Shown here piece by piece: positions 881-25,825 of a DNA stretch of 64,000 bases (positions are counted from its first letter, which is position 1; the number at the start of each line of letters is the position of its first letter). Source of the DNA: Acidobacteriota bacterium (GTDB lineage: Bacteria; Acidobacteriota; Thermoanaerobaculia; Multivoradales; Multivoraceae); the NCBI GenBank assembly GCA_028877275.1, contig JAPPFP010000030.1, positions 19,402-83,401 of the forward strand. Direction: 5' to 3'. A program made the position numbers and the translations under genes. A model generated the notes under the pieces. That model had not been told where the DNA came from. It did no database searches and was given only the letters and a program-made list of their open reading frames with translations.

Positions 881-2275
<1,395 letters not shown>

Positions 2276-2339
2276 CCTAGCCGGGCAACGCCGTGATCGT
2301 GGCAATGGCGGTCGCCGCTTCGCGGCGGCGAGTTTCCTG

Positions 2340-2380
2340 GCCGCCTTCGGCGGCAAGCGGGTCAGAAGACCCGCGCACCC
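2340..2380 (+). repeat. REP-like two-hairpin intergenic element (copy 1)
   Basis: GCCGCC-UUC-GGCGGC (2340-2354), then GCGGGUC-AGAA-GACCCGC (2357-2374), then tail GCACC. Near-identical to the copies at 9296-9339 and 11841-11884. Confidence 0.85.
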
Positions 2381-3090
2381 AGCATTGCTTCGAGCATCTC
2401 CGTCACCGCAGCCGGCATGCCGATCAGGACCGCTCGCGACACGATCGAGTGGCCGATGTTCAGCTCGCGGACGCCGGGAAGGGCGGCCACGCGGCCGACG
2501 TTGGCGACTGTCAGGCCGTGTCCGGCGTACGCCTCGCGGCCCGCGGCGAGGCCGCGCTCGGCGGCCGCCTCGATCTTCGCGAACTCGGCGTCCGCGGCGC
2601 TGCCCAAGGCACGCGTGTAGGCATCCGTGTTCAGCTCGAAGCCGGTGACGTCGTCCTGGTCGTCGAGCGCCGCGAGCTGTTCCAGGTCGGGGTCGACGAA
2701 GACGGCGACGCGGATGCCGGCGCCGGTCAGGCGGCTGGCGGCGCGGCGCACCTGCTCGCCGCGTCCGATCAGGTCGAGGCCGCCTTCCGTGGTCACCTCG
2801 TCCGGACGCTCGGGAACCAGGGTCACCTGGTCGGGCCGGACCCGCTCCGCGAACTGGAGCATCGGCTCCTCGGCGGCGATCTCGAGGTTGAGCCGGCCCT
2901 TGACCGTCTCGCGGAGGTCGACGACGTCCTGGTCCTGAATGTGGCGGCGGTCCTGGCGCAGATGCACGGTGATGCCGAAGGCGCCGGCCTCTTCGGCGAG
3001 CCGGGCCGCTTCCAGCGGACTCGGGTAGCCGGCAAGCCGCGCCTGCCGCAGGGTCGCGACGTGGTCGACGTTGACGGAGAGATGGGTCAT
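2362..3090 (-). CDS. pdxJ: pyridoxine 5'-phosphate synthase
   Basis: 242 aa. MTHLSVNVDHVATLRQAR, ITVHLRQDRRHI and the overall length match PdxJ. Confidence 0.93.
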   Translation of the reverse strand: MTHLSVNVDHVATLRQARLAGYPSPLEAARLAEEAGAFGITVHLRQDRRHIQDQDVVDLRETVKGRLNLEIAAEEPMLQFAERVRPDQVTLVPERPDEVTTEGGLDLIGRGEQVRRAASRLTGAGIRVAVFVDPDLEQLAALDDQDDVTGFELNTDAYTRALGSAADAEFAKIEAAAERGLAAGREAYAGHGLTVANVGRVAALPGVRELNIGHSIVSRAVLIGMPAAVTEMLEAMLGARVF

Positions 3091-21147: not shown

Positions 21148-21794
21148 CTACGGTTCCTCCCATTGGATGCCTGGCGGTGGTTCGAAGCGGCCGGGCGGCG
21201 CGCCGGACCGGTAGTCGCCGAGCAGGAACCGGTTTTCGTTGCCCTGGGCGTCGTAGTAGGTCAGTTCCCGCAATCGCTGGTCCCCGGCGTCGATCACGAC
21301 CTGCACTTCCACCACGTCCTCGCTCGGTTCGAGCGGCCGCAGAACGAGGCGAAGGCGGCTCCCCTCGGCCGCGTCCAGCTCGGCCTCGTAGCGATCCCGC
21401 AGGTCGGTCGTCGTGAGCAGGAAGAAGTCGAGCCCGGGCGCGGGCTGTTCCGAGAGGTCGTAACGCTGTCCGACCGTCTCGCCGGGATTCCAGTGGTGGA
21501 CCGCGCGACCGCAGAGCAGGAACGCCTTCTCGAACGGCGGGGAGTAGTCCCAGCGCAGGCAGCCCGGAAGGTCGATGGCGAGGCTGCCGCGCTCGGTCTC
21601 ACCGTCCTCGGGAGCGAAGCCGAAGGGGACGAAGGTCTGGACGAAACCCGCCGACAGTGGCCCTGAATTCTCCAGCTCTCGCCGGAAGTCGTCGAGCACC
21701 TGCCACGGTTCGTCGGCGGCCGGCGCCGGCGCCGCGCCAAAGCCGAACGCCGAGGCGACCACCGCCGCCAGGGCCGCCGCCCGGACGGGTGACA

Positions 21795-21795
<1 letters not shown>
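21148..21795 (-). CDS. lolA: LolA-like outer-membrane lipoprotein carrier protein
   Basis: 215 aa from ATG 21795 (ATGA overlap with the purH stop). Signal peptide, FVQTF ... LPGCLRWDYSPPFEKAFLLCGRAVHHWNPGE matches the LolA pattern. Confidence 0.6.
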
Positions 21796-23366
<1,571 letters not shown>

Positions 23367-23471
23367 CGGCGTCGGCGCAGCGTAGCACGCAGGACCGCCT
23401 CGCCCGTTGCGTTTCTACGGCGCAAACTGCTAGAAACCTCCCCTGCCGTGCGATGCGTCACGCGCGACCCT

Positions 23472-23547
23472 GCCCAGGTAGCTCAGTTGGTAGAGCACCT
23501 GACTGAAAATCAGGGTGTCGGTGGTTCGAATCCGCCCCTGGGCACCA
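23472..23547 (+). tRNA. tRNA-Phe (GAA)
   Basis: GCCCAGGTAGCTCAGTTGGTAGAGCACCTGACTGAAAATCAGGGTGTCGGTGGTTCGAATCCGCCCCTGGGCACCA, anticodon loop CUGAAAA. Confidence 0.95.
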
Positions 23548-23732
23548 TCTGCGCGAGCCCCGTTACCGCGGTCATTCCAGGCCGCCGCTACGGCGAGCCT
23601 GGAGAATCCGCAGCAATTCCGCAGTGGCTTCCAGAACTTCCCCACCGGCGCCTGAAACCTGTAACTGACGGCAACGAAGCCAGTTACGACCGGCCCGGCA
23701 GTTCCGTCCCGCTACCGGCCGAAAATCCCGCC

Positions 23733-23762
23733 TTGACACACCCTTCACGCGGCCTGTACGTT
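23733..23762 (+). promoter_or_regulatory. sigma70-like promoter candidate for the large ncRNA
   Basis: TTGACA (23733-38), 18-nt spacer, TACGTT (23757-62). The predicted TSS near 23768-23770 coincides with the start of the 5' strand of the closing helix. Confidence 0.45.
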
Positions 23763-23767
23763 GTTTC

Positions 23768-24552
23768 GCGGATAGGGACTGTGACCAAGAATCGCATCCT
23801 GATCCACCGGTCCTGAGACGCGACCTTCGGATCGGAGCCTGAGAAGGGCGAAAGTCACGTTCGCGTGGTGGGCGCCCCTTGAAGGCGAAGGTTGGAGGGT
23901 CACGACTCGGAAGCCGGGCTCGGCGGCAGGAGCCGCTTGGAGTTCGGGGGACTCGGAGGCGCAAGCCGAAGGGAAACCAGGTTCCGAACAGCTCCAGTCA
24001 TCGAGTGGCTCCCGTGGCCGACAGTCTTCCCGGGAGCGGCGCCGAAGGGCGAAAGCCGGACGGAGGCGCAACTGGGAAGGCGGCTTCAGGGAAGCGGACG
24101 ACCGGAAGTTGCCCGGCAGCAACGGAAAGTCGACCGGTAACTGAAGTGCTTCCGTCGGTAGACCCTACGGGGGCTTCGTCGTGAGACCCGACCAGTCGAG
24201 CGACGGAGTGCCCCGCAGGCGTCAGGTCGGCAGAGGCCAGGCTTCGCGAGTCCCCGCGGCGGCGAGCCGCAGGGCGGCAGGCTCGGAGGCGCAAGCCAAG
24301 GAGTCGGTTGCCTGAGGCAAGACGCTGCGGACCGTTCGGCCGTCAAAGCCGAAGGGGCAACCGCAAGAGCGCAAGCTTGAGCGGAAGACCCGGAGGGGGA
24401 GACGAGCGAAAGGGAGACCCGGCTGGTGGCGCGCTCGCGCTCCAAGACCCATGCCCGCCAAGCTGTAGTGGTCCAGGAGATGCGAACGGAAGGGTGAGAG
24501 GCTGAGGTCGATTCGGGTGAAACTCCTGAAGCGGTCCCTATCCTCTTTTTTG
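23768..24552 (+). ncRNA. candidate large (~0.78 kb) highly structured non-coding RNA, family unknown
   Basis: No credible ORF. Own promoter. A 10-bp closing helix 23770-79/24534-43 is followed by a U-run. Multiple plus-strand GNRA and UNCG tetraloop hairpins, triplicated sequence modules and purine-rich composition. Boundaries are approximate. Confidence 0.6.
24534..24551 (+). terminator. 3' strand of the closing helix plus U-tract (possible intrinsic-type terminator of the ncRNA)
   Basis: GUCCCUAUCC followed by UCUUUUUU. The partner strand lies ~760 nt upstream, so this is not a classical local hairpin. Confidence 0.4.
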
Positions 24553-24832
24553 GCCCGCCGGAACCCTAGCACGGCGCGCCCGTAAGTGCAACTCCACCAG
24601 TAACTTACGGCGGCCGCTCGGGCACGCCGAGGCCTCCCGGCCCCGCGAACGGGCGCCTACCGGAACCCCGTCGCCGGCGACGGACGTCCGCCTGCCGGGC
24701 GCGCATCTCCGTGGTCAGAGAGCGGTCAGCCAAACGTCACGCATCGTCCGGAATGCTCCGAGCGTAGTGTTCCTTTAGAGTTATCGAAAACTCGGGAACC
24801 TCCGCCCCACGCAGTAGTCGAGAAGCCAGCCC

Positions 24833-25825
24833 ATGCAGCCCGGTAACGGCACGCCGCAAGACGCAGCGCCCAGGCGCGGCAGCGGCCGGGGCACCGCCAG
24901 CCGCCTGTCTCGCCGCCTGCGCTTCGGCGACTTCGAGTTCGACCCCCAGACACTCGAGCTGCACAACGACCGGGAGACGATCCGGCTCCAGCCCCAGCCC
25001 GCCAGGCTGCTTCACCTGCTGCTCGCCAGCCGCGGCGCCGTCGTATCGCGCGAGGCGGTTCGGCGTCACCTCTGGACCGACGAGATCCACGTCGAGTTCG
25101 ATCAGAGCATGAACTCCTGCGTCAAACGCATTCGAGCGGCGCTCGGGGACAGCGCGGAGGCTCCGCGCTACATCGAGACGCTGCCGCGAATCGGCTATCG
25201 ATTCCTGCAGCCCGTGATCGAGGTCCCGGACAGTGATCCGCCGCTCCAGGCACCGCGGCCCGCGCCGCCGGCCCCGAAACCCCTCCCGCGATCGCGACGA
25301 GTAGCGGCCGCGGTGCTCGCGGCCGTGGGCGCGGCTGTCGGGATCATCCTCACGGTCCTGGTCTGGCATTCACTGGATTCCCGGCCCGGCACCGCCGACG
25401 AGCCGCCGCGCCACGTACTGGCGATCCTGCCCTTCGCCGCCCTCGAGAACTCGGCGGGCGCCGAGCCCTTCCGCCAGGCCCTCGCCCAGGAGCTCATCAC
25501 GTCCCTCGCCCGCCACGGCTCGCAGAACCTCGCGGTCGTGGCCCAGAACGCCGGGCCCGACGTGGAGACCGGCGTGTCGGTGCCCGGCGTCCATGCCGAC
25601 TTCGTCCTCGACGGCCGCGTTCAGCGGGAACAGGGCCGGCTCCGGGTGTGGGCGCGGCTCCTGCTCGCGAAGGATGGCACCGTGCTGTGGACCGAGGCCT
25701 ACGATGGCGCCGAAGAGGAGATCCTGGTCTTCCAGACCGAGGTGAGCACGCGGATCGGCGACGCCGTCCTGGGCCGACTGGCGCAGCTCGTCGAGGAATC
25801 TCCGGCTCCGCACCGCCAGAGCTAG
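24833..25825 (+). CDS. ToxR/CadC-like membrane-anchored transcriptional regulator (OmpR-type winged helix + TM + periplasmic domain)
   Basis: 330 aa. LRFGDFEFDPQTLELHNDRETIRLQPQPARLLHLLL ... IETLPRIGYRF is the wHTH. One TM segment (VAAAVLAAVGAAVGIILTVLVW), then a C-terminal ILPFAALEN... domain. Confidence 0.75.
   Translation: MQPGNGTPQDAAPRRGSGRGTASRLSRRLRFGDFEFDPQTLELHNDRETIRLQPQPARLLHLLLASRGAVVSREAVRRHLWTDEIHVEFDQSMNSCVKRIRAALGDSAEAPRYIETLPRIGYRFLQPVIEVPDSDPPLQAPRPAPPAPKPLPRSRRVAAAVLAAVGAAVGIILTVLVWHSLDSRPGTADEPPRHVLAILPFAALENSAGAEPFRQALAQELITSLARHGSQNLAVVAQNAGPDVETGVSVPGVHADFVLDGRVQREQGRLRVWARLLLAKDGTVLWTEAYDGAEEEILVFQTEVSTRIGDAVLGRLAQLVEESPAPHRQS

Follow-up and report, generated by a model that had tools for sequence, protein, structure and literature searches.

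A candidate family of large structured non-coding RNAs in sponge-associated Acidobacteriota

To our knowledge, only a handful of bacterial non-coding RNAs longer than about 500 nt have been described outside rRNA and introns (OLE, GOLLD, ROOL and a few others), each of them structurally unprecedented. GOLLD is located in phages or prophages, often beside tRNA arrays. According to PMC12286853, GOLLD and ROOL RNAs form RNA-only multimeric cages, and ROOL, GOLLD and OLE form homo-oligomeric RNA-only assemblies. The present analysis concerns a 64,000-nt stretch of DNA, referred to here as the window, from an Acidobacteriota bacterium (GenBank assembly GCA_028877275.1, contig JAPPFP010000030.1, positions 19,402 to 83,401 of the forward strand). 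Between a tRNA-Phe gene and the gene of a ToxR/CadC-like regulator, the window carries an element of about 784-785 nt at 23768-24551 (plus strand), which is very probably a real gene for a structured non-coding RNA (ncRNA).

An initial annotation had proposed a discrete plus-strand ncRNA of about 0.78 kb with its own promoter and a terminator-like end, within a 1.29-kb gap lacking a credible gene. The homologues, covariation and coding tests agree with this proposal. All the strings and coordinates that it quoted are present, and no gene is called within the gap (23547-24833) in the identical public contig. The element is probably an independent gene for a stable, structured and trans-acting ncRNA of an undescribed family, restricted to sponge-associated Thermoanaerobaculia (Ca. 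Multivoraceae). No earlier description of this RNA was found in the literature searched.

Homologues, folding and coding tests

Relatives were gathered by a purH scan covering one genome per GTDB species, through homologues of the regulator protein, and by a pattern scan of metagenomes; the RNA itself was detected with nhmmer. The purH-based scan yielded the RNA only in a close relative, L002. The regulator homologues grade down in identity from 86% to 55%, and in the ten loci whose contigs were fetched, the RNA was found upstream of the regulator gene in all except L209. Every locus reached through five other regulator clusters (86-55%) has a full-length copy; of three clusters at 69-73% identity, two have one. 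The metagenome scan, with the 22-nt core pattern TTCGTCGTGANACCCGACCAGT, added only three contigs, so that either the RNA family is rare or the pattern was too strict. Two of these contigs are from sponge material, one from Aplysina aerophoba (MKWU01) and one from Sarcotragus foetidus (LXNI01) (PMC5099237). In total, 15 distinct full-length homologues of 700-868 nt, plus partial copies, were obtained from Thermoanaerobaculia / Ca. Multivoraceae. The RNA is absent from L209, from L003-L008 and from other Thermoanaerobaculia orders.

Four short Logan contigs from runs SRR10694902-07 (L202-L204 and L215), representing two RNA variants, all start at one shared position within the RNA, near the beginning of its invariant core of about 40 nt. 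Related strains probably coexist in these samples, and the assembler breaks at the sequence that they share.

Compared with L002, identity is 58% in the spacer after tRNA-Phe, 97% in the promoter, 91% in the RNA (48 substitutions and a few indels), 86% in the 57 nt past the U-tract and 44% further downstream. Since the RNA is 91% identical, compared with 82% at purH third codon positions and 44-58% in the spacers, it is considered to be under purifying selection.

For 23768-24552, the folding energy of the plus strand is -403.6 kcal/mol, compared with -351.6±5.7 kcal/mol for dinucleotide shuffles (z = -9.2), and that of the minus strand is -342.9 kcal/mol (z = -3.3). In each homologue, folding favours the plus strand over the minus strand by 44-76 kcal/mol, and the purine content is 56-61% throughout. 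The RNA of the window, with 58.7% A+G, lies within the most purine-rich 784-nt stretch of the 64 kb, and a hand count of 43/60 A+G given in the initial annotation was exact. Its statement that stable tetraloops occur on the plus strand only was also borne out, with seven GNRA-capped 3-bp hairpins on that strand and none on the other.

RNAalifold on the 15 sequences gave a model of 194 pairs, in which 98.1% of the cells are standard pairs. Changes on both sides were found in 30 pairs, compared with 9.6±2.1 in shuffles (none of 500 reached this number) and with 3-12 when partners were slid by 1-3 columns. The covariation score of this model was 0.147, against 0.115 for shuffles and 0.035-0.053 for the slid controls. 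With RIBOSUM scoring, 46 of 260 pairs were compensated (17.4±3.2 in shuffles). G-U pairs make up 337 of 2862 paired cells, and the same pairs read on the minus strand are only 86.3% canonical. The criteria of an exhaustive search for all covarying helices were too permissive, and its output was too noisy to use.

Long stop-free frames cross the region, most of them on the minus strand, which is rich in pyrimidines (the longest, in L211, has 288 codons), and a public gene caller placed a 381-aa gene antisense over the RNA in L211 (2558-3703, minus strand). Both would fit a protein-coding region or a decaying pseudogene, with the structure as a by-product of high G+C. The L211 call has no Pfam match, however, and is an artefact that stems from the scarcity of stop codons on this pyrimidine-rich strand; annotations of the clade's genomes are probably wrong over the RNA. 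Open frames shift in position and phase between homologues, and no frame of the RNA region matches Pfam. Indels relative to the window break the frame and are nearly all of 1-2 nt, while the larger ones, of 17, 49, 60 and 81-87 nt, correspond to entire arms or to a junction. Variable columns are distributed over the three phases as 90/96/100, with no 3-nt periodicity. The region is more conserved than purH synonymous sites, and dinucleotide-preserving shuffles fold far worse. A coding or pseudogene origin is given a negligible probability.

Gene boundaries and architecture

The promoter predicted in the initial annotation, of the sigma-70 type, lies at 23733-23762 (plus strand) and consists of TTGACA as the -35 element (23733-38), an 18-nt spacer and TACGTT as the -10 element (23757-62), with a predicted 5' end at 23768-23770. 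Across 12 loci, neither CTTGACA nor TA..TTG varies, in contrast to the diverging spacer around them, and the RNA 5' end, CGGAUAGGGACUGUGACC, is invariant across loci. At the other end, GUCCCUAUCC (24534-43) is perfectly complementary to GGAUAGGGAC (23770-79) and is followed by UCUUUUUU at 24544-51. The alignment turned this proposed 5'/3' pairing into a 13-bp closing helix, P1 (23770-23782 with 24531-24543), almost invariant and complementary in 15/15 homologues, with the U-tract kept. The P1 3' strand (24531-43) and the U-tract (24544-51) form a terminator-like end at 24531-24551 (plus strand), and the predicted 3' end of the RNA is within the U-tract. The segments GGUCCCUAUCC and CUUUU of this end are essentially invariant in the 15 sequences, with one substitution between them in L217. 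The G+C-rich P1 stem directly abuts UCUUUUUU, its 5' strand being about 750 nt upstream; a promoter/terminator scanner, which requires a loop of 3-8 nt, made no call. The helix and the U-tract presumably act together as a terminator. Promoter and terminator-like end are credited because they are invariant in the homologues.

Conservation continues past the U-tract in an element at 24552-24608 (plus strand; ..CTAGCAC-N13-GTAAGTGCAAC..CAGTAACTTAC), kept in 11/12 loci with L216 as the exception; this element might work as a site in the DNA or extend the RNA upon read-through. RNAalifold gave no consensus structure for it beyond a 4-bp GCAC/GUGC pairing. A minus-strand promoter candidate within this element (TTGCAC-17-TAGGGT) was dropped, as it agrees with the consensus at 6/12 positions. 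On the upstream side, an inverted repeat, GUAACUG-N13-CAGUUAC, is located at 23661-23687 (plus strand), between the upstream direct repeat described below and the promoter. Its arms show a compensatory change, AAGUG/CACUU in L002 for AACUG/CAGUU in the window, and it is not kept in all lineages. This repeat resembles 24582-24608 (GTAAGTG…CAGTAACTTAC), so that similar short palindromes flank the RNA gene; they may be protein sites, hairpins or insertion relics.

The RNA adopts a multi-domain fold with arms radiating from a central stack, P1-P2-P3-P4, and with at least five GNRA-capped arms, several of which share a 3x3 purine internal loop. P2 (23783-23800 with 24491-24509) is irregular, and P3 pairs CCACCG (23804-09) with UGGUGG (24424-29); both helices, whose 5' strands span 23783-23809 of the plus strand, were obtained by RIBOSUM-scored RNAalifold and by single-sequence minimum free energy folding. 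In L216, an A-to-G change within P3 retains a G-U pair. P4, formed by GCCGGG (23913-23918, plus strand) with CCCGGC (24418-23), closes the central region and is 100% paired in 14 sequences. Eight homologues carry an insert of 81-85 nt exactly between CCCGGC (24418-23) and UGGUGG (24424-29), at the junction, which contains two GNRA hairpins and its own covarying stem; in the insert-bearing homologues, P3 lengthens to 10 bp (CCACCGGUCC/GGAUCGGUGG). A rival pairing of CCGGU with GCCGG (23807-11 with 23913-17), all of whose strands are invariant, is possible. The CCACCG/UGGUGG and GCCGGG/CCCGGC junction around the first arm is favoured because the insert is placed between the 3' strands of these two helices.

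The best-supported helices are those of 23811-23911, 23919-24005, the three-armed core at 24007-24268 and the GCAA hairpin at 24274-24312, all on the plus strand. Domain 1 (23811-23911) is a long arm with internal loops and a UUCG cap (23860-63). Compensatory changes were found in alignment columns 52-65/133-146 and 74-77/121-124, one pair being C-G in 7 and U-A in 7 sequences. Domain 2 (23919-24005) is capped by GGC-GCAA-GCC (23958-67), and four of its pairs have compensatory changes (columns 156-171/249-264). Its distal part, about 23938-23990, is dispensable: L224 is without 23938-23990, and L002 has 17 extra nt in that arm.

Domain 3 (24007-24268) is the most conserved core, closed by 24007-18 with 24256-68. 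Its three arms are located at 24024-24081 (GAAA cap), 24082-24149 (loop CCGGCA, 24113-18) and 24165-24218 (loop CCGACCA, 24188-94), both of these loops being invariant. Compensatory changes occur in columns 283-289/336-342 and 356-363/393-400, and a near-invariant stretch of about 40 nt starts at 24169. The closing helix shows wobble-consistent changes and a G-G to G-C change in L216, and a rival pairing (24254-63 with 24321-30) is also present. A pseudoknot between a loop of this domain and downstream sequence (CCGACC, 24188-93, with GGUCGG, 24225-30), whose strands the initial annotation had listed as a helix, is not supported: its 3' partner varies uncompensated in several lineages, with a 4-bp core mostly kept.

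Domain 4 (24274-24312, plus strand) is a hairpin in which a 3x3 internal loop of purines (GGA/AAG) lies below a GGC-GCAA-GCC cap (24288-97); three of its pairs have compensatory changes (columns 549-553/570-574), and its loop-and-cap module recurs at 23953-72 and 24040-63. Domain 5 (24332-24417, plus strand) is a variable periphery of three small hairpins, including GAGC-GCAA-GCUU. Columns 642-644/649-651 covary there. An 87-nt deletion has removed the whole domain (24332-24417) from L201, and L216, whose losses exceed those of L201, has kept little of it. Domain 6 (24430-24490, plus strand) is a 3' arm whose large loop contains the invariant AUGCCCGCCAAGCUG, with covariation in columns 808-811/834-837. 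Finally, a 3' hairpin, UUCGGG-N7-CCUGAA (24512-24530, plus strand), stands directly before the P1 3' strand; of its six pairs, two vary on one side while still pairing. Whole hairpin domains have thus been gained and lost between lineages, while the core of about 40 nt and the loops CCGGCA and CCGACCA do not change.

The internal helices listed in the initial annotation fared unevenly against this model, about half of them being superseded by alternatives with covariation support. The hairpins GGC-GCAA-GCC (23958-67 and 24288-97), GGC-GAAA-GCC (24048-57) and CACG-UUCG-CGUG (23856-67) were recovered in the alignment, as was the nested GCAA hairpin at 24361-84. CCC-UACG-GGG (24163-72) did not survive comparison with the homologues, and the same was true of GCGGC/GCCGC and CAGGAG/CUCCUG. 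In place of the proposed GUGACC/GGUCAC helix, 23898-903 pairs with 23822-28, and in place of UGGAGUU/AGCUCCA, the GCUCC strand pairs with GGAGC at 23929-33, both with covariation. For GGUUGCC/GGCAACC, three wobble changes in L002 are consistent with pairing, but the more distant homologues show no clean fit in the same register. GCUCCCG/CGGGAGC and CCGACC/GGUCGG are neither upheld nor discarded by the alignment.

Two modules occur twice each within the RNA, one of 23 nt (…CUCGGAGGCGCAAGCC) and one of 12 nt (GAAGGGCGAAAG). Such repeated hairpin modules, together with the purine richness and the many GGA/GGAGG-type motifs, would also suit an RNA that titrates proteins as a sponge or a conventional regulatory RNA acting by base pairing (similar to CsrB or 6S, or a long small RNA, sRNA), its function residing in short repeated motifs and not in the global fold. 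The RNA is moreover an independent unit beside a transcription factor gene, as many sRNA genes are. Against this, sponge RNAs conserve only their short motifs, and neither long stretches without variation nor long-range helices, conserved junctions or arms that covary would be expected of them. GGAGG occurs five times, compared with about 3.4 expected from base composition, so it is not enriched, and the repeated motif occupies an internal loop next to GNRA caps instead of hairpin loops. A sponge or antisense role is judged improbable. Clamped ends, GNRA caps with a recurring purine loop, invariant loops and a long core resemble what is seen in scaffold or catalytic RNAs such as OLE, GOLLD/ROOL and RNase P, by analogy, and not in sponge or antisense RNAs.

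Genomic neighbourhood and candidate regulation

The host is a high-G+C (70%) member of the Acidobacteriota, class Thermoanaerobaculia, whose purH protein is 96% identical to that of the 'Candidatus Multivorans thiocomprendens' metagenome-assembled genome. To the left of tRNA-Phe, the minus strand encodes kdsA, pyrG, kdsB, a LolA-like gene and purH. The tRNA-Phe gene (23472-23547, plus strand, ARAGORN) is followed by the 1285-nt gap, and to the right of the gap stands the 330-aa coding sequence of the ToxR/CadC-like regulator (24833-25825, plus strand), beyond which aat, ychF and a GDSL lipase gene are on the minus strand. A 719-codon open frame at 21657-23816 (plus strand), antisense to purH and running over tRNA-Phe into the RNA, is a long spurious reading frame of this 70% G+C genome.

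The regulator has an N-terminal Trans_reg_C domain, its closest solved structures being ToxR, PhoB and CadC, and it is labelled in some sources as a wHTH/TolB-like protein. Upstream of the RNA, a direct repeat, TCCGCAG-N4-TCCGCAG, with an 11-bp period and a 4-bp A/T-rich spacer, occupies 23607-23624 (plus strand), about 145-162 bp upstream of the predicted start. In 12 aligned loci, including L210 and L216, the second copy is invariant and the first nearly so; the repeat is absent in L209. Its 7+4+7 layout is that of the Pho box, and the repeats are a candidate binding site for a winged-helix factor of the OmpR/PhoB/ToxR type. A second set of direct repeats (GGTCAG, GGTCAG and CGTCAC, at exact 11-bp spacing) is located at 24713-24740, about 100 bp upstream of the regulator gene. 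It is kept in 12/12 loci and in L209, with a conserved block next to it (…CGGAATGCTCCG.GCGTAG…). These repeats look like an operator for a winged-helix regulator, possibly for autoregulation.

The order of these elements bears on whether the RNA might be a giant cis-acting leader of the regulator gene, similar to a riboswitch or attenuator, in which the closing helix and U-tract would terminate transcription conditionally and the regulator mRNA would arise by read-through. In the 15 full-length homologues, the RNA always lies upstream of the regulator gene and runs in the same direction; the terminator-like RNA end and the conserved sequence past the U-tract would also suit a leader. However, the RNA and the gene are separated by 280-480 nt of poorly conserved spacer of variable length, and the regulator has its own conserved block with the three 11-bp-spaced repeats, kept in L209 without the RNA. 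Adjacency is weak evidence in any case, since the whole purH...ychF neighbourhood is syntenic. Finally, no anti-terminator pairing is evident for P1, the strands of which are about 750 nt apart. A cis-acting leader is considered quite unlikely, and an independent transcription unit is preferred.

The tRNA-Phe adjacency, on which, together with the size class, the initial annotation had based a likeness to GOLLD/ROOL, did not withstand comparison between loci, and the RNA is chromosomal, not phage-borne. In L210, an IS110-family transposase gene (DEDD_Tnp_IS110 and Transposase_20, 1374-2432) separates tRNA-Phe from the RNA cassette, with the TCCGCAG repeats and the promoter intact despite the insertion. 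In L216, tRNA-Phe is upstream of a rearranged purH, and the RNA is still upstream of the regulator gene. Since the adjacency is broken in these two loci, it is regarded as incidental. L209 (regulator 72% identical) has just 465 nt from tRNA-Phe to the regulator gene and is without the RNA, the promoter, the upstream direct repeat and the post-terminator element, all four together, while it keeps the regulator and its upstream block. From this joint absence, the RNA cassette is deduced to span about 23605-24610.

A mobile element or prophage RNA (GOLLD-, ROOL- or HEARO-like) integrated beside tRNA-Phe would explain the position downstream of a tRNA gene, the absence of the cassette as a block in L209 and the similar short inverted repeats on both sides of the RNA gene. 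It would also fit the variability of the slot after tRNA-Phe in other Thermoanaerobaculia, where toxin-antitoxin genes occur. L003, L004 and L006 (purH 59-65% identical) have tRNA-Phe near purH with other sequence downstream of it, which suggests that the site is a variable hot spot in those genomes. In this slot, L006 has a HicA toxin (1285-1860, minus strand of the locus, E = 6e-11), and L003 has a Rv0623/VapB-like open reading frame just under the Pfam cut-off (2300-3000, minus strand of the locus). The conserved neighbourhood, on the other hand, contains no integrase, phage or transposon genes. The same housekeeping synteny (purH...ychF) is held at regulator identities of 55-100%, and the RNA, chromosomal and syntenic, is single-copy in the window. 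The empty site of L209 shows no copy of a flanking repeat. No homologue was found with family-specific motif patterns in 2.9 million viral contigs, nor by blastn in phage, plasmid and E. coli collections, and Rfam gave no GOLLD, ROOL or HEARO match. Of the four scans of viral contigs, two used generic motifs and gave 119 and 15 matches, which are chance matches that nhmmer rejects. A mobile origin is very improbable, and the RNA is vertically inherited.

Working model and comparison with known RNAs

Rfam 15, at the gathering score, found only five tRNAs in the whole window. At E <= 10, the segment 23400-24950 gave nothing for the gap, and at E <= 5, six homologue loci gave nothing beyond tRNAs, in keeping with the initial view that the RNA could not be placed in a known family. 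No Rfam match was obtained with the models of GOLLD, ROOL, OLE, HEARO/omega RNA, RNase P, tmRNA, group I/II introns, T-box or riboswitches. The RNase P, tmRNA and group II signatures reported as missing in that annotation are indeed missing, Rfam giving none at E <= 10 and ARAGORN finding only tRNAs.

In the working model, transcription would stop at the P1 helix and U-tract, so that the mature RNA would be identical to the primary transcript and have its ends protected. The GNRA caps, like the invariant loops, would make tertiary contacts, possibly intermolecular ones, as CCGG in one loop is self-complementary; the scaffold mode of working is deduced from such contacts. The RNA would then be a compact scaffold, in a ribonucleoprotein (RNP) or an RNA-only assembly, and not a molecule for short antisense pairing. 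Action in trans as a scaffold or RNP is a proposal on which we are evenly divided. Transcription would be controlled through the Pho-box-like TCCGCAG repeats by a protein of the OmpR/PhoB/ToxR type, the downstream membrane-anchored regulator being an obvious candidate.

Several points weigh against this reading. The existence of the RNA and both of its ends are deduced from sequence, and the 15 sequences amount to no more than about 6-8 independent lineages. P1, P3 and P4 are invariant, so they are backed by complementarity and indel placement and not by covariation, and two global topologies compete at two places in the fold. The promoter, although present and invariant in the homologues, was missed by a consensus promoter/terminator scanner, which flags neither signal, and its -10 hexamer agrees with the consensus at 3/6 positions. 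A U-tract after a long-range helix instead of a local hairpin is unusual for an intrinsic terminator, and conservation for about 55 nt beyond it makes a longer isoform possible. No feature points to a specific partner or activity. As for regulation, the regulator's own repeats (GGTCAG twice and CGTCAC) differ from TCCGCAG, and the regulator persists without the RNA in L209; the regulatory link between the two is therefore weak, and control of the RNA by the neighbouring ToxR/CadC-like regulator is doubtful.

More speculatively, and in our opinion unlikely, the RNA could be the first large 'ornate' class of Acidobacteriota with an activity of its own, either as a self-assembling RNA-only nanostructure like ROOL, GOLLD and OLE or as a novel ribozyme or RNP core around a P2/P3/P4-type junction similar to that of RNase P, switched on in sponge symbionts by a membrane-anchored ToxR/CadC-like sensor. 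In the nanostructure version, the invariant CCGG loop and the repeated GNRA/internal-loop modules would serve as subunit contacts.

The family is of practical interest in several respects. Its gene boundaries are clean, and a conserved core with dispensable arms is a natural guide to minimal constructs. The hosts are uncultured sponge symbionts, in which genetics is hard, and the RNA is amenable to in vitro transcription. A family model would also improve annotation, since public gene callers sometimes put a spurious protein gene over the RNA (L211).

Among known systems, RNase P RNA shares with this RNA a terminal 5'/3' helix and a hairpin arm between long-range helices with contiguous 3' strands (CCCGGC-UGGUGG here). 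Two short strings, GGAAGCCGGGCUC and AGACCCGGCU, have what we take to be a resemblance to the flanks of RNase P P4; homology was not borne out against E. coli rnpB. One segment, GGGGGAGACGAGCGAAAGGGAG (24394-24415), agrees with E. coli rnpB 41-63 at 19/22 positions, which is regarded as a coincidental likeness of two purine-rich sequences. A relationship to RNase P was rejected: the best local rnpB alignment was reached by 5/300 shuffles and is located in a segment not conserved within the RNA family, the RNase P models of Rfam gave no match at E <= 10, and BLAST gave no match to any E. coli genome, rnpB included. Moreover, L209 and other orders of the Thermoanaerobaculia lack the RNA, so it cannot be the housekeeping RNase P.

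The pairs OxyS/OxyR, GcvB/GcvA and SgrS/SgrR are similar in that an independently transcribed RNA stands beside a DNA-binding regulator, here with a candidate 7+4+7 operator upstream. However, OxyS, GcvB and SgrS are base-pairing sRNAs of 100-250 nt, usually divergent from the regulator gene, whereas the RNA described here exceeds them in size about 4-8 times, has a global fold and stands in tandem with the regulator gene.

With GOLLD and ROOL, the RNA shares its size class, many GNRA-capped arms, variable peripheral domains and, in the window, a nearby tRNA. The invariant loop CCGGCA (24113-18), with its palindrome CCGG, could mediate self-association, as for GOLLD/ROOL. It differs from them in that it is not found in phages or prophages, its tRNA adjacency is broken, its distribution is narrow and vertical, and there is no Rfam match. 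The genetic setting, chromosomal, vertical and beside a membrane sensor-regulator, is unlike that of the phage-borne giants.

OLE offers the closer parallel. Both RNAs are very large (about 600-800 nt) and multi-domain, with many invariant nucleotides (for OLE, see PMC12054373 and PMC12286853). Both are single-copy and chromosomal among housekeeping genes, in one bacterial lineage and apparently vertical in inheritance, and in both cases the function is not obvious from context and a membrane protein gene is directly downstream. They differ in that OLE belongs to Bacillota with OapA-type neighbours, whereas the RNA of this study belongs to Acidobacteriota, has a ToxR/CadC-like neighbour and no Rfam OLE match, and possesses a promoter of its own and a terminator-like end by which the 5' and 3' termini are clamped together. 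A member of none of OLE, GOLLD/ROOL or RNase P, the RNA is, by distribution and genetics, most like OLE.

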